Positions 46,384 through 56,064 of a DNA stretch of 64,000 bases are shown here, one piece after another (positions within the stretch are counted from its first letter, which is position 1; each line of letters starts with the position of its first letter). Made by a program: the position numbers and the translations under genes. The notes under the pieces were generated by a model, which ran no database searches, was not told the origin of the DNA, and worked only from the letters and a program-made list of their open reading frames with translations. Source of the stretch: Escherichia coli (GTDB taxonomy: Bacteria > Pseudomonadota > Gammaproteobacteria > Enterobacterales > Enterobacteriaceae); NCBI RefSeq assembly GCF_003790525.1, contig NZ_CP033635.1; one strand, written 5' to 3'.

Positions 46384-47319
46384 ATGGCACTGCCAATTCT
46401 GTTAGATTGCGACCCAGGTCATGACGACGCTATCGCAATCGTTCTCGCCCTCGCCTCACCAGAGCTTGATGTCAAAGCAATTACGTCTTCCGCCGGAAAC
46501 CAGACACCAGAAAAAACCTTACGCAATGTTCTGTGTATGCTGACCTTGCTTAATCGCACCGATATTCCGGTAGCAAGCGGTGCGGTAAAACCATTAATGC
46601 GTGATTTGATTATCGCGGACAATGTGCACGGCGAAAGCGGTCTCGACGGCCCGGCATTACCGGAACCGACGTTCGCACCGCAAAACTGTACGGCGGTGGA
46701 GCTGATGGCGAAAACGCTGTGTGAAAGTGAGGAACCTGTCACCATTGTTTCTACCGGACCGCAAACTAACGTTGCCTTGCTGCTCAATAGCCACCCGGAA
46801 CTGCATAGCAAAATTGCCCGTATCGTGATTATGGGCGGCGCAATGGGGCTTGGTAACTGGACGCCTGCGGCTGAATTTAATATTTACGTTGACCCGGAAG
46901 CGGCAGAAATTGTCTTCCAGTCAGGGATCCCGGTGGTGATGGCCGGTCTGGATGTTACTCACAAAGCACAAATTCACGTTGAGGACACCGAGCGTTTCCG
47001 CGCCATTGGCAACCCTGTTTCAACCATTGTTGCCGAACTGCTGGATTTCTTCCTCGAATATCATAAAGACGAAAAATGGGGCTTTGTCGGCGCACCGCTG
47101 CATGACCCATGCACCATCGCCTGGCTGTTAAAACCGGAGTTGTTTACCACTGTTGAGCGCTGGGTTGGCGTGGAAACACAAGGGAAATATACCCAAGGTA
47201 TGACGGTTGTTGATTATTATTATCTGACTGGCAATAAACCGAATGCCACTGTAATGGTCGATGTTGATCGTCAGGGCTTTGTTGATTTACTGGCCGATCG
47301 TCTGAAATTTTACGCTTAA
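46384..47319 (+). CDS. rihA: Pyrimidine-specific ribonucleoside hydrolase RihA
   Basis: 311 aa from [16 protein letters not shown] (IU-nucleoside hydrolase DxDxxxDD motif). Confidence 0.9.
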
Positions 47320-47332
47320 CACACGTCATTGA

Positions 47333-47372
47333 TTAAGATCACCACGCGTTACCTGGGTGGTCTTAATCTGTT
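47333..47372 (+). terminator. Hairpin after rihA
   Basis: TAAGATCACC...GGTGGTCTTA inverted repeat then T-rich run. Confidence 0.45.
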
Positions 47373-47402
47373 TATCTCTTTTTCTTTCAAGATATAAATG
47401 CA

Positions 47403-49073
47403 ATGGATAATGCAGAACTCGCCATTGGTATCGATCTCGGTACTACCAATAGTTTAATTGCCGTCTGGAAAGACGGTGCCGCGCAATTAATTCCAAATAA
47501 GTTCGGTGAATATTTAACACCATCCATAATTAGCATGGATGAAAATAATCATATTTTAGTCGGAAAACCGGCTGTATCACGGCGTACTTCGCATCCGGAT
47601 AAAACGGCAGCGTTATTTAAACGTGCAATGGGCAGTAATACCAACTGGCGGTTAGGCAGCGACACATTTAACGCGCCAGAACTGTCCTCTTTGGTATTAC
47701 GCTCATTAAAAGAAGATGCCGAAGAATTTCTGCAACGTCCGATTAAAGATGTGGTGATCTCCGTTCCGGCTTATTTCAGCGATGAACAACGCAAGCATAC
47801 CCGTTTAGCAGCGGAGTTAGCCGGGTTAAATGCGGTACGCTTAATTAATGAACCCACAGCAGCTGCGATGGCATATGGCCTGCATACGCAACAAAATACC
47901 CGCTCGCTGGTTTTTGATCTCGGTGGCGGCACGTTTGACGTCACGGTGCTCGAATACGCCACGCCGGTGATTGAAGTTCACGCCTCCGCTGGCGACAACT
48001 TTCTTGGCGGCGAAGATTTTACTCATATGCTGGTGGATGAAGTTTTAAAACGCGCCGCAGTGGCTAAAAACATGCTCAACGAAAGTGAGCTGGCAGCCCT
48101 GTACACCAGCGTGGAAGCGGCAAAATGTAGCAATCAATTACCGCTGCAAATTAGCTGGCAGTATCAGGAAGAAACGCGTGAGTGCGAATTTTACGAGAAC
48201 GAACTGGAAGATTTGTGGTTGCCGCTGCTCAATCGCTTGCGAGTGCCGATTGAACAGGCGTTGCGCGATGCACGTCTGAAGCCAAGTCAAATCGACAGTC
48301 TGGTGCTGGTTGGCGGCGCATCACAAATGCCGCTGGTGCAGCGAATCGCCGTGCGTCTGTTTGGCAAATTACCGTATCAAAGTTACGATCCGAGCACCAT
48401 TGTCGCGCTGGGCGCAGCAATCCAGGCCGCCTGCCGCTTACGCAGTGAAGATATTGAAGAAGTGATCCTCACTGATATTTGCCCCTACTCCTTAGGTGTT
48501 GAAGTTAACCGCCAGGGCGTTTCCGGCATTTTCTCACCGATTATTGAACGAAATACCACTGTGCCGGTGTCGCGAGTAGAAACTTACTCGACCATGCACC
48601 CGGAGCAGGATTCAATAACGATTAATGTTTATCAGGGAGAAAATCACAAAGTTAAGAATAATATACTGGTTGAATCCTTTGATGTTCCGCTGAAGAAAAC
48701 CGGGGCTTATCAGTCTATTGATATTCGCTTTAGTTATGATATTAACGGATTGCTTGAAGTTGACGTGCTTCTGGAAGACGGCAGCGTTAAGTCCAGAGTC
48801 ATTAACCACAGCCCGGTAACGTTAAGTACCCAGCAAATTGAAGAGAGTCGGGCACGGTTATCCGCATTAAAAATTTATCCGCGCGATATGCTCATCAACC
48901 GTACCTTTAAAGCCAAACTGGAAGAGTTATGGGCGCGGGCGCTGGGTGACGAGCGAGAAGAGATTGGCCGGGTAATCACCGATTTTGATGCGGCGCTGCA
49001 ATCAAACGATATGGCCCGCGTCGATGAAGTTCGTCGACGGGCGAGCGATTATTTGGCCATTGAGATCCCTTAA
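47403..49073 (+). CDS. hscC: Hsp70-family chaperone HscC (Hsc62)
   Basis: 556 aa; actin-like ATPase motifs IDLGTTNS, DLGGGTFD; no C-terminal EEVD-type lid tail. Confidence 0.9.
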   Translation: MDNAELAIGIDLGTTNSLIAVWKDGAAQLIPNKFGEYLTPSIISMDENNHILVGKPAVSRRTSHPDKTAALFKRAMGSNTNWRLGSDTFNAPELSSLVLRSLKEDAEEFLQRPIKDVVISVPAYFSDEQRKHTRLAAELAGLNAVRLINEPTAAAMAYGLHTQQNTRSLVFDLGGGTFDVTVLEYATPVIEVHASAGDNFLGGEDFTHMLVDEVLKRAAVAKNMLNESELAALYTSVEAAKCSNQLPLQISWQYQEETRECEFYENELEDLWLPLLNRLRVPIEQALRDARLKPSQIDSLVLVGGASQMPLVQRIAVRLFGKLPYQSYDPSTIVALGAAIQAACRLRSEDIEEVILTDICPYSLGVEVNRQGVSGIFSPIIERNTTVPVSRVETYSTMHPEQDSITINVYQGENHKVKNNILVESFDVPLKKTGAYQSIDIRFSYDINGLLEVDVLLEDGSVKSRVINHSPVTLSTQQIEESRARLSALKIYPRDMLINRTFKAKLEELWARALGDEREEIGRVITDFDAALQSNDMARVDEVRRRASDYLAIEIP

Positions 49074-49080
49074 ACACGGC

Positions 49081-49180
<100 letters not shown>

Positions 49181-49183
49181 CAT

Positions 49184-50635
49184 CTAACTGAACAACATCG
49201 CGATTTTACCGATCGCGTAACCTATCACCAGCACCGTTAAGCTGATTTTGATAATGCTGGTAATGCTCTGTGGTTTTTCATCCTCATCATTTTTTTCTTC
49301 GTGGTTTTCAGGTGTTGGCTCATCGACATCTTCATCCTCCGGCTCGAGTTTCACTTTCGTCAACAGCATCCGCGTGATAATGGCCTCTAATGGATGAGCA
49401 TCTCCACCTTCCAGCCTTGTATTAAGACGGGCCAGCATCTCTTGTTTCGGGAACGCTTCCAGCACAACCTGTTCCGCTACCCGATACAAATCCAGTAACG
49501 GTGAATCTTGTTCTGTCTCGCTACCGACTCTCGATTTCCACCATGCCCATGCTTTGCGCTTGAAGAATAACGACTCAATAAACGATTGACCTAACGGCGA
49601 TAATTTTCCGCTATGTAAAATTTCCGCCCATAACAGCCGCGTCCGGGCGCTCTCACCAGGAACATATTTCAACGGTTGACCTTGCGCATCTATCATGCTT
49701 CGCGCTTCGATAACCATCACTAATAACGCGAAATAATCCGGGCAATGACGCTTGCTCCACTGCAACAACAAATTATCAGCTTGTGTAGATGGGTAACTCT
49801 CCCGGTATGCGCAGAGATCGGCAAGCAGGCTTTCCCCCTCGCCACAGTACAACCGTTGCGCACACTGGTAATAACGGGCATCTTCGCTTTCTGGATTTTC
49901 TGCTTGCCACTGTTGGGCAACAGGAATAAGTTCCGCCATACCTGTTTTCACCGAGCTGTACCAGCGCAACAGTTTGCGATGTAACTTGACATCATCAGGA
50001 ATGAACCACGGACCTTCCATTGCCATAAACGCAGTGACATAGTCAGGATGGTAACGGCAGCAGCGTTCCAGCGCGAAGTAATACTCAACAGTCTGGTTCT
50101 GCAACGCGACGGGATATTCCAGAAGGCTAAGGAAATCGAAACAATCACCAGCCTGAATGGCCTCAAGAAAAGCCTCCCTTTCTTCCTCATCCATTCCTTC
50201 GCTGTCATTAAACGAATGCCAGTTCAAACGCTCTGCCAGCAAAGAAGCACAATTTAATGAAAGATATCGCGCTTCTATAGCGACTGCACACAGCGGCCAG
50301 CGTAATTGATCGACATCCTCCATGTTCCAGGTATTTAATTGCTGAATAAATTTCTGCCAGGCGGAGGGCTGAAAACGATCACTTTCAGAATCCAGTAATG
50401 CCCTGAATGCACGTAGTATTTCATGTTCAGCGGCGGCATCTTTTTCTTCATCATCTGCTTCCTCGACAGGATTTACCGCCAGTCGCAGCGCCTCTTCATA
50501 GGCCTGGCGTAATGCTTTAAACCCCTGCGGATCGGTTTCGGGATGACACAACGGTAAGCGAGCAAGATAAGCCTGGCGGATAATGTCTATTTGCGTCGTG
50601 CTTTCAATTTCGAGGATTTGCCAACATGTTTTCAT
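49184..50635 (-). CDS. djlC: J-domain-like co-chaperone DjlC (YbeV), C-terminally membrane-anchored
   Basis: 483 aa; N-terminal J-like region with HPE in place of HPD; acidic linker; C-terminal hydrophobic segment [26 protein letters not shown]. Confidence 0.85.
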
Positions 50636-51339
50636 AGGTCGCTCACATCCTTAAGCGTTACCGGGCATTCAGGCTGGACAGTTAATGGCTGCCAGGGAAG
50701 CGTGGCATAGAAACGGTCGCTTCCCGCTGCCAGCTCTTCGAACATCCGACTCCCGGCGCTATCGTATTTGTACAGGGTTAGCGCCTCGCGTAGCGAAGCG
50801 TTGTCTTCGCACTGAGAAGATTGCCAGTAGAGACGCCCTAACGAATAGGCGGAAAAATAGTGCATCCAGCTGTGATAGTAATGGTGTGCTCGTATATAGA
50901 CGCGCGATTGCAGCCATAAACTCTCGTCTTCCGTCAGCCACTTGTTGAGCACACCAACCCGTGATAAAAAACCCATCCGCACATAATCCCAGGCTTTGAT
51001 TCCCCCTTCCCCACAACACATAGCGGTTTGGGCAACGAATTGGGTATAAATCAACCCTCTCTCCGAGCCGCCAGCAATTAATGCTTTCCACTCTTCAGGG
51101 GAAGAGCGATGCCATGTCAGATATAAGCCAGCTAAATCATTGGCATGACCATCATCGGTCATCTGATAAATAGTCTGAATTAAATCATCACGATTATTTA
51201 TTCCCCAGGATGATGAGAGATCGAATTCTTTTATCCCGGTATACATTTTTGGCGAGTCATGCGCGGGCTTGCAACCCTGATTAAGTATTTCCATGGGCGT
51301 AGAAAGCGCAAAAAGAAGATATTGTTCTTCCTTATTCAT
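50632..51339 (-). CDS. ybeU: DUF1266 protein YbeU, translationally coupled to djlC
   Basis: 235 aa; paralog of YbeR (about 60% identity by eye); stop overlaps djlC start (ATGA). Confidence 0.85.
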
Positions 51340-51440
51340 TTGTTAATAATCCCTTATGTGCATTAACTGACTACTTTTTTATTATTGATGAGTATAAACT
51401 TGACGCTTTCAAAATAAAAAGAAAATCGAAGCATTCACTC

Positions 51441-51995
51441 ATGAATAAAAAATTAATGTATATATTCGCAATATTTATAGTTGCAGCAATAACCTGTATT
51501 AGCCAACCCAAGAAAACGACGTTGCGTGATAAAGCCATGGCGAATTATGCCTTTGATTATTTAAGCTCACCGGGCAGTCTTCCATTCACCACGGCAGCCA
51601 CGGAGCTTTCCGCGATTCATGGTCACTCAACGTCGCAATATCGCCTTGGAGAATTTTATCTTCATGGTAGCGACGGTAAACCACTGGATTATACACAGGC
51701 GAGATACTGGTATGAGCAATCAGCGGAACAGGAAAATCCACGCGCGCAAAGTAAACTGGGGTGGATCTACCTCAAAGGTCTGGGGGTCAAACCCGATACC
51801 CGTAAAGCAATTCTCTGGTATAAGGAAGCAGCTGAACAAGGGTATGCTCATGCTCAATATACTTTAGGTTTGATCTACAGAAACGGCTCAGGTATTAATG
51901 TTAACCATTATGAATCTCAAAAATGGTTAAAACTGGCCGCCAAACAACATTACAAAAACGCGGAAAGATTACTTGCCGGGCTTCCCGCACATTAA
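51441..51995 (+). CDS. ybeT: Sel1-repeat protein YbeT with N-terminal signal/anchor
   Basis: 184 aa; hydrophobic N-terminus [19 protein letters not shown]; repeated AxxWY..AAEQG Sel1-like units. Confidence 0.85.
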
Positions 51996-52004
51996 CGTCG
52001 ACTG

Positions 52005-53432
52005 TCACCCGAACAGATGGAGTATTTTCCCTATCAAACCGGCAAAGATAAAAATGTAGAAAATAATTTTGATGACGCCCAGGCAGCCCGGCCCACCATC
52101 GTCAACGGGCATCGACTGCGGTTGCGGCTCCGGTTCGACGGTTTGCTTCTCGGTAAAATTTGCCGCCTGAATTAATAATCGACGAATCATTAATGCTTCC
52201 AGTGGACAACGATCTTCTGCATCAAGGCGGCTGACGATCGGCATTAATGATTCTTCTGTCGGTTGGCTGGCCTGAACTAATTGTTTAGCAACTAAATATA
52301 ATGGCCATAAGGGATGTTCTGTATCACGCGTGAGTGAGATCCGCGGCTTACGTCCTTTGTGCAAAACCATCTCGACCAGAGAACGCCCCAGCGCAGAGAG
52401 TTTTTCATCACTGAGTATTTCGTATAAATGAAAACGCGTACGAGCGCTGTCACCAGGGACATAAAGTAGCGGTTTTCCCTGATCGTTAACCAGATCACGC
52501 GCTTCAATCATCATCACCACTAACGGGTAATAATCGACCCGATGCTGACGGCACCATTGCAACATTAAAGCATCCGCCTGGGTGGAGGGATACTCGCGCC
52601 AGTAGTCACAAAGTTCTGCCAGCAGGCTTTCGCCTTCTCCACAATAGACGCGTTGCGCGTATTCATAATAACGCGCATCTTCATTATCAGGTTCAGCTTC
52701 CCGCCACGACCGGGCGTAATCCAGAAGTTCGGGGATATCCAGACGGCTTGTGCTATACCAGCGGAGTAAATTTCTGTGCAAATTTGCATCATCGGGGATA
52801 ATCACTGCGCGATGTTGCGCTAAATACAATGTCAGCCATTCTGGATGCGATGACCAAATCCGAGCGAACATTTGGTAAAAATCAATGGTGTCATTTTGTA
52901 CGGCAACGGGCAGATGCAGAATGGTCTGGAAGTTAAAAACATTCCCCTTCGCAATGGCATATAAAAAGGATTCCAGTTCTTCTTCGTCTATTTCCCCGAC
53001 GTTTTCCTCCTGCAACCACCGCAATCTTTCTGCTAATAACACCACGCACTCGAAGGATAAATGGGCAGTGTTCATGGCTATTGTGCACAGCGACCAGCGT
53101 AATTCATCAATATCTTCCATCGAGCAATAATTTAATTGCTGAATGAATCGCTGCCAGGCAGAGGGCAGAAAACGTTCGCTATCAGAGGCGAGTAACGCAC
53201 GAAAGGCGAGCAGAATTTCATGTTCTGCAACTTCATGTTCTTCTGGTTGCCAAACAGATTTAGCAGGCGACTGCGCAATCCGTAGCGCGTCCTCATACGC
53301 CTGACGAAGTTGTTTAAAACCCTGCGGATCGGTTTCTGGATGAAAGGACGGTAACAGCGCCAGATAAGCGCGGCGGATAATATCGACGTCAGTCGTTTCC
53401 TCTATTTCGAGAATCTTCCAGCAATTTTTCAT
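52005..53432 (-). CDS. djlB: J-domain-like co-chaperone DjlB (YbeS), C-terminally membrane-anchored
   Basis: 475 aa; full-length paralog of DjlC; HPE motif; C-terminal hydrophobic tail [24 protein letters not shown]. Confidence 0.85.
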
Positions 53433-54136
53433 AGGTCGCTCATATCCTTAAGCGTTTCCGGGCATGTGGGGTAGTCAGCCAGTGGTTGCCAGGGTAAGGT
53501 CGCGTAATATGCATCGTCACTGGCAAATAATTGATAAAACATATCATTGCCGGAATCGTCGTATTCTTTACGCGCTAAGAATTCACGTAATAAAGGCAGA
53601 TCATCATCCTCGGGAGACTGCCAATATTGCCGACCAAAGGTATAACCGGCAAAGTATTGCCGCCAGTGACTATAATAACGTAGAGCCCGTAGATGAATGC
53701 GCGACTGGATCCACAGGCTTTCTTCTTCACTCAACCAGTTATTAAGTACGCCCATTCGGCTTAAAAAACCCATCCGGACATAATCCCAGGCTTTAATTCC
53801 TCCCTCACCACAGCATTCGGCGGTGCTGGCGACAAATTGCGCATAAGCCTGACCTTGCTCATTTAATTCAGCAAGATAGTCACGCCATTCACATGGCGAA
53901 TAACGAAACCAGCAGTGATAAAACCCTGCCAACCGCGCGGCATGACCGTTATCAATCATTCGGTAAATTGTGCGCAGCAGGTCATCACGGTCATCAATTC
54001 TCCAGGAGGAAGAAAGGTCAAAAAAGCGTGTACCTAAATACATTTTGGGGGATGAATGCGAAGGTAAACAGCATTCATTGCGTATTTCCATCGGAGTGGA
54101 AAGTGCAAACAATATTTTTTGCGACTCCATGTCCAT
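53429..54136 (-). CDS. ybeR: DUF1266 protein YbeR, translationally coupled to djlB
   Basis: 235 aa from ATG 54136 (ORF-track start 54163 is an extension); paralog of YbeU; ATGA overlap with djlB. Confidence 0.8.
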
Positions 54137-54299
54137 ATAATTCATCCTTAAATATTCATTCAATGAATATTAACCACGTTGCGAGGCTCATTTATTTATA
54201 CTTTTCTGACGCAACATAATACGCATAAAATAAGGCTTACGCAAAAATGGAACACATAAAAATATAATATGTTTTATATGCAACCATAAGGAAATGATA

Positions 54300-55277
54300 A
54301 TGATTTTTACGTCAAGTTGCTGCGATAATTTATCAATAGAAAAGATTGTTAAACGTGCTGAAAAAGGCGATAGCGAGGCTCAATATATTGTTGGGTTTTA
54401 TTATAATCGCGATAGCGCAATTGACTCTCCGGACGACGAAAAAGCCTTCTACTGGCTGAAGCTTGCCGCTGAACAAGGCCATTGTGAAGCACAATATTCC
54501 TTAGGGCGGAAATACTCCGAGGATAAAAGCCGTCATAAAGATAATGAGCAAGCCATCTTTTGGCTGAAAAAAGCTGCCCTACAAGGCCATACTTTCGCTT
54601 CCAACGCCCTTGGCTGGATACTGGATCGTGGAGAAGACCCCAACTATAAAGAAGCGGTTGCCTGGTATCAGATAGCCGCGGAGAGCGGAATGCCTTATGC
54701 GCAAAATAATCTTGGATGGATGTACAGAAATGGTAACGGAGTCGCACAAGACTATGCGCTGGCATTTTTCTGGTACAAACAAGCTGCATTACAAGGCCAT
54801 AGTTACGCGCAAGACAACCTGGCCGATCTCTATAAAGACGGAGAAGGCGTTGCTCAAAACAAGACACTCGCCGCATTCTGGTATTTGAAAAGCGCACAGC
54901 AGGGTAATCGGCATGCCCAGTTTCAAATTGCATGGGATTATAACGCTGGCGAAGGGGTGGACCAGGACTATAAGCAAGCGATGTACTGGTATCTGAAGGC
55001 TGCCGCTCAGGAAAGCGTCGGCGCTTACGTCAACATCGGTTATATGTATAAACATGGACAAGGCGTTGAGAAAGATTATCAGGCCGCCTTTGAATGGTTT
55101 ATGAAAGCCGCTGAATGCAATGACGCCACTGCCTGGTATAACCTGGCCATTATGTATCACTACGGAGAAGGAAGACCTGTCGATCTCCGACAGGCTCTCG
55201 ACCTGTATCGTAAAGTTCAGGCATCCGGTACCAGGGATGTCAGTCAAGAAATCCGTGAGATTGAAGATTTACTGTAA
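54300..55277 (+). CDS. ybeQ: Sel1-repeat protein YbeQ
   Basis: 325 aa from ATG 54300 (better RBS spacing than 54294); at least 7 Sel1-like repeats. Confidence 0.85.
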   Translation: MIFTSSCCDNLSIEKIVKRAEKGDSEAQYIVGFYYNRDSAIDSPDDEKAFYWLKLAAEQGHCEAQYSLGRKYSEDKSRHKDNEQAIFWLKKAALQGHTFASNALGWILDRGEDPNYKEAVAWYQIAAESGMPYAQNNLGWMYRNGNGVAQDYALAFFWYKQAALQGHSYAQDNLADLYKDGEGVAQNKTLAAFWYLKSAQQGNRHAQFQIAWDYNAGEGVDQDYKQAMYWYLKAAAQESVGAYVNIGYMYKHGQGVEKDYQAAFEWFMKAAECNDATAWYNLAIMYHYGEGRPVDLRQALDLYRKVQASGTRDVSQEIREIEDLL

Positions 55278-55290
55278 GAGATAAAAACAA

Positions 55291-55315
55291 GGGCCGGGGA
55301 ATTTTATTCGGCCCA
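55291..55315. terminator. Hairpin between convergent ybeQ and ybeL
   Basis: GGGCCGGGGAATTTTATTCGGCCC. Confidence 0.45.
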
Positions 55316-55347
55316 TATTCTCTTTATTGCTGTGCGAAATCAGACCA

Positions 55348-55830
55348 TTAAGGCTCGAACGGGCGTCTCTGGAACTGGTCATGACCACATTTCGGGCATA
55401 GCGTCAGCACTTCCGGTGTGTAGATTGGGAGATGGAAATGACATTTCTCGCAGACCAGATTTCCCAGCCCTACCACTTCTCCGCTGTGATAAACCCCATG
55501 ATGATTGAGGTCCTGGAAAACTTCGCGCCATTCAAGCTGCGTTTTATCGGTGATGTCTGCCAGCTCCTGCCATAAGCTTTCTTTAATCACCCGCATAAAG
55601 ACGCTGTCAGATTCTTCTTTCAGGCTCTCTTCATAGCTCATGGCGAACTCTTCCAGGTCACGTCTGACAGCTCGCGTCAGCTCATCGACCTCGGTTCGCG
55701 TTAACTCCCCTGTTTTTATTACGCGCTCGCGCGCCTGCTCCACCAGTGCGTCGATATCACGTTCCCCATTACGCAGGCGTTCGCTCAGTGACGCGACCAG
55801 TTCACGGTAATATTGAGCAACCTTGTTCAT
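55348..55830 (-). CDS. ybeL: Zinc-ribbon protein YbeL (DUF1451)
   Basis: 160 aa; C-terminal CEKCHF...CPKCGH zinc-ribbon. Confidence 0.85.
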   Translation of the reverse strand: MNKVAQYYRELVASLSERLRNGERDIDALVEQARERVIKTGELTRTEVDELTRAVRRDLEEFAMSYEESLKEESDSVFMRVIKESLWQELADITDKTQLEWREVFQDLNHHGVYHSGEVVGLGNLVCEKCHFHLPIYTPEVLTLCPKCGHDQFQRRPFEP

Positions 55831-56064
55831 CGTTTCATCTCCCGGGTCGTTAACTGACTATAATAATAGACGTTCTTTGTTCCTTGCTTTGCTAATACGC
55901 CCACAAACTCTGTAAATTAATGTATGAATAATCCGGGCATCATTTCAACGTCGAGTGCGCGAAAGGCTGTTTTGACGCGGACGTTTGGGCTATGCTATGC
56001 GGATCTGAAAAACCACCTCAACGCTACATTTGTAGCCGTATTGAAAACAGGACCACTGGCTGCC

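Follow-up and report, generated by a model that had tools for sequence, protein, structure and literature searches.

Near-identical ybeU-djlC and ybeR-djlB gene junctions in Escherichia coli: probable translational-coupling junctions under combined coding and ribosome-binding constraints

Genes at the locus

The window analysed here, a stretch of 64,000 nucleotides from Escherichia coli (contig NZ_CP033635.1), contains two paralogous two-gene units, in each of which a gene for a DUF1266 protein is followed by a gene for a J-domain protein (Table 1). The 5.2 kb around the two junctions was 100% identical to E. coli SMS-3-5 (NC_010498.1), and the RefSeq annotation of the latter for this region lists djlC, ybeU, ybeT, djlB and ybeR, with the product names co-chaperone DjlC and J domain-containing protein. 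In both units the two genes are neighbours on the same strand, and the stop codon of the first overlaps the start codon of the second. Two ORFs on the + strand, antisense to the units (50685-50948 and 53464-53745), were set aside as spurious, because their relative starts differ between the two units.

YbeU and YbeR both exceeded the Pfam cutoff of 27 for PF06889 (DUF1266) with the scores given in Table 1. The PF06889 domain comprises residues 41-216, so that the conserved C-terminal tail described below lies outside the Pfam model. A PDB fold search with the YbeU model gave no significant match. Against PF00226 (DnaJ), which has a gathering cutoff of 27.8, DjlC scored 19.0 bits and DjlB 21.8 bits, and the J-domain motif of both proteins reads HPE where the HPD of the class had been sought. 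In the literature DjlB and DjlC are treated as J-domain proteins of class C with a tail anchor in the membrane, acting as partners of HscC, the ATPase of which is stimulated by DjlC; all three proteins were below detection in exponential growth (PMC8215388).

Table 1. Genes and junction features in the window. The order of the genes is hscC-djlC-ybeU-ybeT-djlB-ybeR.
Feature	Position	Strand	Description
hscC	47403-49073		Hsp70
djlC	49184-50635	minus	J-domain co-chaperone of HscC, 483 aa, tail-anchored (PMC8215388)
ybeU	50632-51339	minus	DUF1266 protein, 235 aa; PF06889, 154.7 bits
ybeT	between the two units	plus	Sel1 repeats
djlB	52005-53432	minus	J-domain protein, 475 aa, djlC paralog
ybeR	53429-54136	minus	DUF1266 protein, 235 aa, ybeU paralog; PF06889, 154.2 bits
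Junction block, unit 1	50629-50668	minus	last 11 ybeU codons, ATGA overlap and first djlC codons
Junction block, unit 2	53426-53465	minus	last 11 ybeR codons, ATGA overlap and first djlB codons
ATGA overlap, unit 1	50632-50635	minus	ybeU stop TGA over djlC start ATG
ATGA overlap, unit 2	53429-53432	minus	ybeR stop TGA over djlB start ATG
SD-like block UUAAGGAUGUGAG	50642-50654	minus	within ybeU coding sequence; starts 19 nt upstream of djlC AUG
SD-like block UUAAGGAUAUGAG	53439-53451	minus	within ybeR coding sequence, upstream of djlB AUG
Candidate 6-bp hairpin CGCUUA-AGGAUG-UGAGCG	50640-50657	minus	unit 1; SD GGA in the loop; without covariation support
Candidate 6-bp hairpin CGCUUA-AGGAUA-UGAGCG	53437-53454	minus	unit 2 counterpart

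Identity of the two junctions within the genome

The two 40-nt junction strings that an earlier note on this DNA had reported were recovered as given there, with an identity of 38/40. The overall nucleotide identity of the two units was about 56%, and the protein identity was 61% for YbeU and YbeR and 50% for DjlC and DjlB. When both units were scanned with a step of 1, the junction was the best 40-nt window, although its lead was narrow. The runner-up (50965-51004 against 53762-53801), which encodes a block of 14 residues, reached 37/40, and the window with the J-domain sequence HPETDPQGF (50516-50555 against 53313-53352) reached 35/40. A uniform identity along the units was not seen in this sliding-window comparison, the 38/40 of the junction standing against about 56% overall. 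On average the coding regions are clearly more diverged, as stated in the earlier note, although the two blocks with 37/40 and 35/40 come close. It is through the synonymous sites, and not through raw identity alone, that the junction stands out.

The last 11 codons of ybeU and ybeR read CP(V/E)TLKD(V/M)SDL, followed by the stop codon, and the only two differences in the junction are both non-synonymous (Val/Glu and Val/Met). The same codon is used in both units for each of the nine shared tail residues (9/9) and also for Lys2 of the djl product. This amounts to a run of 10 identical codons at identical residues, while the next-longest run in the units was 5 and the background rate of identical codons was 0.44. 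In a permutation test with the E. coli pair alone a run of 10 was obtained with P=0.042. The synonymous signal in this pair is thus above chance, but only modestly, and it becomes firm through the family-wide data.

Within the species, the 101 nt around the ybeU/djlC junction were at least 99% identical in 4220 of 4278 E. coli records, and the whole 5.2-kb region showed an identity of 95-99% in most E. coli records. The conservation of the junction within the species is consistent with purifying selection.

Comparison of the junctions across genera

The sample of 22 junctions (18 + 4) was assembled by a genome scan, which gave 4 loci, and by exact-protein look-ups, which gave 10 more. The junctions were drawn from Escherichia spp., E. 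albertii, Salmonella, Citrobacter enshiensis, Klebsiella spallanzanii and metagenomic enterobacteria. The ATGA stop/start overlap was present in 22/22 DUF1266-djl junctions, and it forces the last Leu codon of the DUF1266 gene to be YTA. A C-terminal tail of the form CPxTLKxVSDL was kept across the 22 junctions. Kept as well was a purine-rich block complementary to the 3' tail of 16S rRNA, which in E. coli has the form UUAAGGAUGUGAG and lies about 19 nt upstream of the AUG.

In 31 homologs of the DUF1266 proteins the tail residues P226, T228 and L229 were invariant, and S233 and L235 were conserved to at least 90%. In the AF2 model (mean pLDDT 82.7) the tail had a pLDDT above 90 and formed a short helix at residues 227-232. 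Selection at the protein level on this tail is real. The earlier note did not mention this major contributor, namely the conservation of the DUF1266 tail as a peptide for which an ordered structure is predicted.

As the DUF1266 genes were only 61-73% identical for most pairs of lineages, their synonymous sites are near saturation. Synonymous change was scanned along a codon alignment of both genes from 12 diverged lineages (about 62-79% identical), the score being the use of the same codon by pairs of sequences sharing a residue relative to a residue-specific expectation. The 11-codon window ETLKDVSDL-MK, which spans the end of the DUF1266 gene and the start of djl, ranked first of about 720 for suppressed synonymous change. 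Its rate of identical codons was 0.71, compared to 0.47 expected, and its score was 7.55, compared to 5.21 for the next best window. After shuffling of the columns, P=0.025 was obtained for the top window, which also stayed at rank 1 when the forced Leu codon was left out. The main contributors were Ser AGC (12/12), Thr ACG (11/12), the rare Leu codon CTT (9/12) and, at codon 2 of djl, AAA (11/11). The second-ranked window (djlC codons about 298-308; 49709-49741) consisted of common preferred codons. The statistics lend moderate support, with P=0.025 for the window scan and P=0.042 when only the E. coli pair is considered.

Shine-Dalgarno-like block in the tail codons

The sequence of the 3' tail of 16S rRNA is well established. 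The blocks of ybeU (UUAAGGAUGUGAG) and ybeR (UUAAGGAUAUGAG) are in register with its complement UAAGGAGGUGAUC, and the last 12 bases of the ybeU block (UAAGGAUGUGAG) matched UAAGGAGGUGAU, again complement of the tail, at 10/12 positions, base for base. In both units the last part of the upstream gene thus carries an SD-like sequence for djl, at a spacing that is longer than typical. The duplex of the ybeU block had a dG of -11.4 kcal/mol, compared to a gene-wide median of -2.4, and its pairing was better than that of synonymous resamples (P=0.004). The corresponding values for the ybeR block were -8.1 kcal/mol and P=0.10. Over the 12 lineages the duplex energies with GAUCACCUCCUUA ranged from -5.5 to -16.4 kcal/mol, with a gene-wide median of about -2.4. 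The best pairing site fell within about 13-24 nt before the AUG; for the eight lineages with the strongest pairing it was at -17 to -21.

Codon choice was assayed by keeping the tail amino acids of each lineage fixed and resampling the synonymous codons. The observed codons paired with the 16S tail better than the mean of the resamples in 12/12 lineages. The combined Fisher P of about 2e-6 is optimistic, as the lineages are not fully independent.

Changes of amino acids in the tail pointed in the same direction. The two residues Lys-x are the most variable of the tail, and their changes keep a purine- and G-rich block (AAG-GAU, AAA-GGA-G, CAG-GAG-G and AGG-GGU). Two lineages (tails TLTGMGDI and TLKAMGDL) have lost the upstream block; in these, Ser AGC is replaced by Gly GGG or GGU, and these changes create GGGGGAU or GGUGAUC, an SD nearer to the AUG. 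Three lineages had a weak AAGGA alone (dG -5.5 to -6.0), and one had GAGAAAG. We read this as a requirement for a djl SD that would be written into the DUF1266 tail and would partly shape it.

The SD core is unusually distant, as the AAGGA ends 12 nt from the AUG and the core lies at about -18 to -14. An optimum of about 5 for the aligned spacing was reportedly found by Chen et al. in 1994, and the E. coli block stands at about 10 on this measure. Because this spacing is beyond the optimum, the efficiency of the block as an initiation SD is uncertain. With the stop codon in the A site, the SD-like block would be about 11 nt behind the P site, and it is a speculative thought that the block could also act by holding the terminating ribosome.

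Selection on the tail peptide alone

The conservation could also be due to selection on the DUF1266 tail peptide only, as a structural or interaction motif, with the identity of the codons resulting from chance and a shared codon bias. The strong conservation and predicted order of the peptide agree with this, and so do the conserved peptide blocks away from the junction that reach 35-37/40 nt, the marginal P value of the codon run in the E. coli pair, and the synonymous changes in the tail (CTC, GAC, GTT and GAT) in Klebsiella and other lineages. It does not account for the first rank of the junction in the family-wide scan, or for the retention of Ser AGC, Thr ACG and the rare Leu CTT in 12, 11 and 9 of the 12 lineages. 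Moreover, the choice of codons systematically strengthens the pairing with the 16S tail, the purine- and G-rich block persists at the variable Lys-x residues, and non-conservative changes from Asp to Gly and from Ser to Gly restore an SD. Selection on the peptide alone is therefore considered improbable.

Candidate hairpin and other elements

A small hairpin, CGCUUA-AGGAUR-UGAGCG, can be drawn around the SD-like block, and the conserved bases could serve this structure, with a CsrA-like factor binding the GGA in the loop and controlling the translation of djl. Both E. coli junctions gave the hairpin in their MFE fold as well as in their centroid fold, and the RNAalifold consensus contained its four inner pairs. 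Of the stem cells in 18 junctions, 92.6% were able to pair, and one double change from G-C to A-U was seen. This value nevertheless gave no signal of covariation, since shuffled alignments were 91.1% paired and 102/500 shuffles reached the observed value. In the RNAalifold consensus itself just an invariant 4-bp stem (-2.5 kcal/mol) without covariation was obtained, and for the whole region (120 nt) the folds did not exceed shuffles in stability (z = 0.05 and -0.59).

In CsrA binding hairpins a short stem is capped by a loop with GGA. The junction hairpin is similar in that AAGGAUG is placed in a hexaloop on a 6-bp stem and overlaps the SD. The sequence AAGGAUGU resembles the CsrB loop motif and the core ARGGAUGU that Dubey et al. 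reportedly selected with CsrA by SELEX in 2005. In contrast to the known sites, the loop GGA is not universal (13/18 junctions), no second GGA is located nearby for the CsrA dimer, and covariation is absent from this candidate. A literature search on CsrA and hscC found no link of CsrA with these genes. Neither a structured cis-regulatory RNA nor a CsrA site was thus recognised in terms of covariation, a conserved loop GGA or a second GGA, and a regulatory hairpin of this kind is very unlikely to be the cause of the conservation.

A somewhat broader possibility is that the distant SD-like block, which starts about 19 nt before the AUG and would be exposed by the loop of a small hairpin, is a dedicated control element. 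It could be a tether that holds the terminating ribosome for 1:1 reinitiation, or a site of the CsrA type. We give this only a small chance. Such an element would determine how much DUF1266 protein is made relative to J-protein in the HscC chaperone system, which is poorly understood, and the DUF1266 C-terminal peptide would then be partly shaped by an RNA function.

An Rfam scan of positions 47000-56000 at a permissive E-value gave nothing at the junction. Sub-threshold matches resembling REP and naRNA4 were present at 49064-49189. A scan of 49000-54400 for promoters and terminators showed no site at either junction, and promoter-like sites were fewer than in shuffled sequence. A frameshift fusion of the DUF1266 and J-proteins was rejected by inspection, the sequence GAC CUA UGA AAA having no slippery heptamer.

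Gene conversion between the units

The junctions could also have been homogenised by a short conversion tract between the paralogous units in the Escherichia lineage, and local gene conversion had been one of the suggestions of the earlier note. The ybeU and ybeR junctions of E. coli (38/40) are indeed more similar than the paralog pairs elsewhere (31, 34 and 32 of 40) and slightly more similar than orthologs of different genera (33-37/40). The latter values are, however, near those of the paralogs (31-38/40), and such similarity between genera cannot be explained by conversion within a genome.

Four-taxon site patterns were determined for E. coli and a Citrobacter-like genome that carries both units. 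Over the whole units 139 informative sites grouped the sequences by ortholog, 55 by genome and 55 in the cross arrangement. As the sites by ortholog dominate and those by genome are at the level of the noise class, the duplication is old and predates the genera, and there was no general concerted evolution. In the interval from -60 to +30, sites by genome were not rarer than sites by ortholog in some comparisons (4 vs 5, 5 vs 1 and 3 vs 3), but these numbers are tiny, and the site counts of this interval (4/5/0, 1/4/0, 5/1/2 and 3/3/1) are too small to decide.

Differences between the paralogs inside or bordering the block (GAU-GUG vs GAU-AUG, GYA vs GAA, and ACA-UGU vs AAU-UGC) were fixed in E. 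coli, E. albertii, E. whittamii and two other Escherichia lineages. As the exact runs between these fixed differences are at most 18 nt, any conversion tract would be limited to 18 nt or less. This is shorter than the minimum for RecA-dependent exchange, which Shen and Huang are said to have placed at about 23-27 bp in 1986. The suggestion of local conversion was given up on these grounds, namely the 139/55/55 pattern, the junction identity across genera and the fixed differences in five Escherichia lineages. Conversion appears unnecessary for the identity of the junctions and is unsupported; we regard it as highly unlikely, with a small chance left to a short, ancient event.

Translational coupling as the best explanation

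We consider it likely that the DUF1266 and J-protein genes of each unit are translationally coupled at this block, and that combined constraints act on it. Three of these would act on the same 40 nt or so. The first would be the conserved, ordered DUF1266 C-terminal tail (CPxTLKxVSDL) encoded by the block. The second would be the SD-like sequence serving djl, which reads UAAGGAUGUGA in E. coli and is complementary to the 3' tail of 16S rRNA. The third would be the overlap of stop and start codon in the ATGA, after which comes AAA, an A-rich second codon. Ribosomes terminating on the UGA of ybeU or ybeR may reinitiate at the overlapping AUG, or new 30S subunits may be recruited there, in either case aided by the SD. 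Translation of djl would then depend on both the SD and the translation of the upstream gene, the synthesis of DjlC and DjlB would be coupled to that of YbeU and YbeR, and each DUF1266 protein would be made together with its J-protein.

The synonymous positions of the tail presumably cannot drift because they are also bases of the ribosome-binding site. A lack of drift at the tail codons would leave the old paralogous copies near-identical at the junction, while the rest of the genes is about 56-63% identical. The coupled constraint of ribosome-binding site and overlap proposed in the earlier note is supported by the ATGA in 22/22 junctions, the SD-like block at a fixed offset, the codons that favour pairing and the top synonymous window. 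The accompanying idea of coding in two frames applies to the 4 nt of the ATGA only; elsewhere in the block, coding sequence is combined with the ribosome-binding site.

Comparison with known systems

The trpE-trpD and trpB-trpA genes of E. coli are classic coupled pairs of the ATGA type. The units described here resemble such pairs in that the genes are neighbours on the same strand with a 4-nt stop/start overlap, the SD of the second gene lies within the final codons of the first, and synonymous change is reduced where coding sequence and ribosome-binding site overlap. They differ from typical pairs in the position of the djl SD core, which is further upstream (about -18 to -14), and in that this SD is part of a long, interrupted complement of the 16S tail. 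For ybeU-djlC and ybeR-djlB, moreover, the coupling is predicted from the sequence.

Eyre-Walker and Bulmer are said to have reported in 1993 that synonymous substitution is reduced near the starts and overlaps of enterobacterial genes. The junctions show the same local drop in synonymous change at an initiation region, which is attributed to selection at the level of the mRNA and not of the protein. Unlike that effect, the drop at the junctions is also seen between ancient paralogs in one genome, and it is found mostly at the 3' end of the upstream gene. The junction is best read as an ordinary ATGA-type coupling junction in a known locus, and the synonymous drop there is a known phenomenon. 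Ordinary overlapping constraints, rather than conversion or a hidden element, best account for the island of identity that the old paralogs share.

HscC, DjlB and DjlC reportedly form a specialised Hsp70 system of E. coli, as described by Kluck et al. in 2002. Literature searches for DUF1266 and for ybeU and ybeR found nothing on the junction, on the djl overlap, or on YbeU and YbeR as DUF1266 partners. The djl genes analysed here are the same as in the HscC/DjlB/DjlC system, and the locus adjoins hscC (PMC8215388). As the ATGA overlap is universal and the SD is conserved, YbeU is presumably co-produced with DjlC and YbeR with DjlB, and this hints that the uncharacterised YbeU and YbeR work with the HscC Hsp70 system.

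Features of the two DUF1266-djl units and their surroundings (window coordinates)
Feature	Position	Strand
REP-like palindromic elements	49064-49189	
Second-ranked window, djlC/djlB codons ~298-308	49709-49741, 52506-52538	minus
J domains, DjlC/DjlB	50516-50635, 53313-53432	minus
YbeU	50632-51339	minus
Potential 6-bp hairpin CGCUUA-AGGAUR-UGAGCG	50640-50657, 53437-53454	minus
ybeT	51441-51995	plus
ybeR, TTG start to ATG	54137-54163	minus

Gene products and arrangement of the units

The longest open reading frame of ybeR begins with TTG, nine codons upstream of an ATG. The ATG form (MDMESQ...) has the start matching the 235-aa homologs, and this shorter form aligned end to end with YbeU and all relatives. 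The AlphaFold2 model of YbeU was all-alpha with about 14 helices (mean pLDDT of 82.7, pTM of 0.82). A Foldseek comparison of this model with PDB chains gave no significant fold match, the best E value being 1.4, so the fold of DUF1266 may be one for which no structure has yet been solved. The N-termini of DjlC and DjlB scored 19 and 21.8 bits as J domains, below the Pfam DnaJ cutoff of 27.8, and carry HPE (CHPETD/FHPETD) at the position of the canonical HPD.

The Sel1-repeat gene ybeT lies between the two units in Escherichia only (relatives' loci L005, L007, L009 and L013 versus L011). Only 12-73 nt separate the directly adjoining units in Salmonella, Citrobacter and related contigs. Just one unit is present at loci L003, L008, L010, L012 and L014; at L010 it has a different neighbourhood, adjoining Rhs/Tox-HNH/Imm50 genes. 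Where hscC and djlC converge, the DNA separating their ends has two REP-like palindromic elements; they show up as matches to Rfam naRNA4 (CssrE) of 42.5 and 28.8 bits, below its gathering score of 59.5.

Synonymous conservation and the potential junction hairpin

In the 12-lineage scan for suppressed synonymous change, the second-ranked codon window (score 5.21) encodes PDYFPLLVMVI and on inspection consisted mainly of common preferred codons (GAT, CCG, CTG, GTG). At both DUF1266-djl overlap junctions a potential hairpin can be drawn whose sequence is kept, but without covariation support. Its hexaloop holds the GGA of the Shine-Dalgarno sequence, and this loop-displayed GGA resembles CsrA-type sites.
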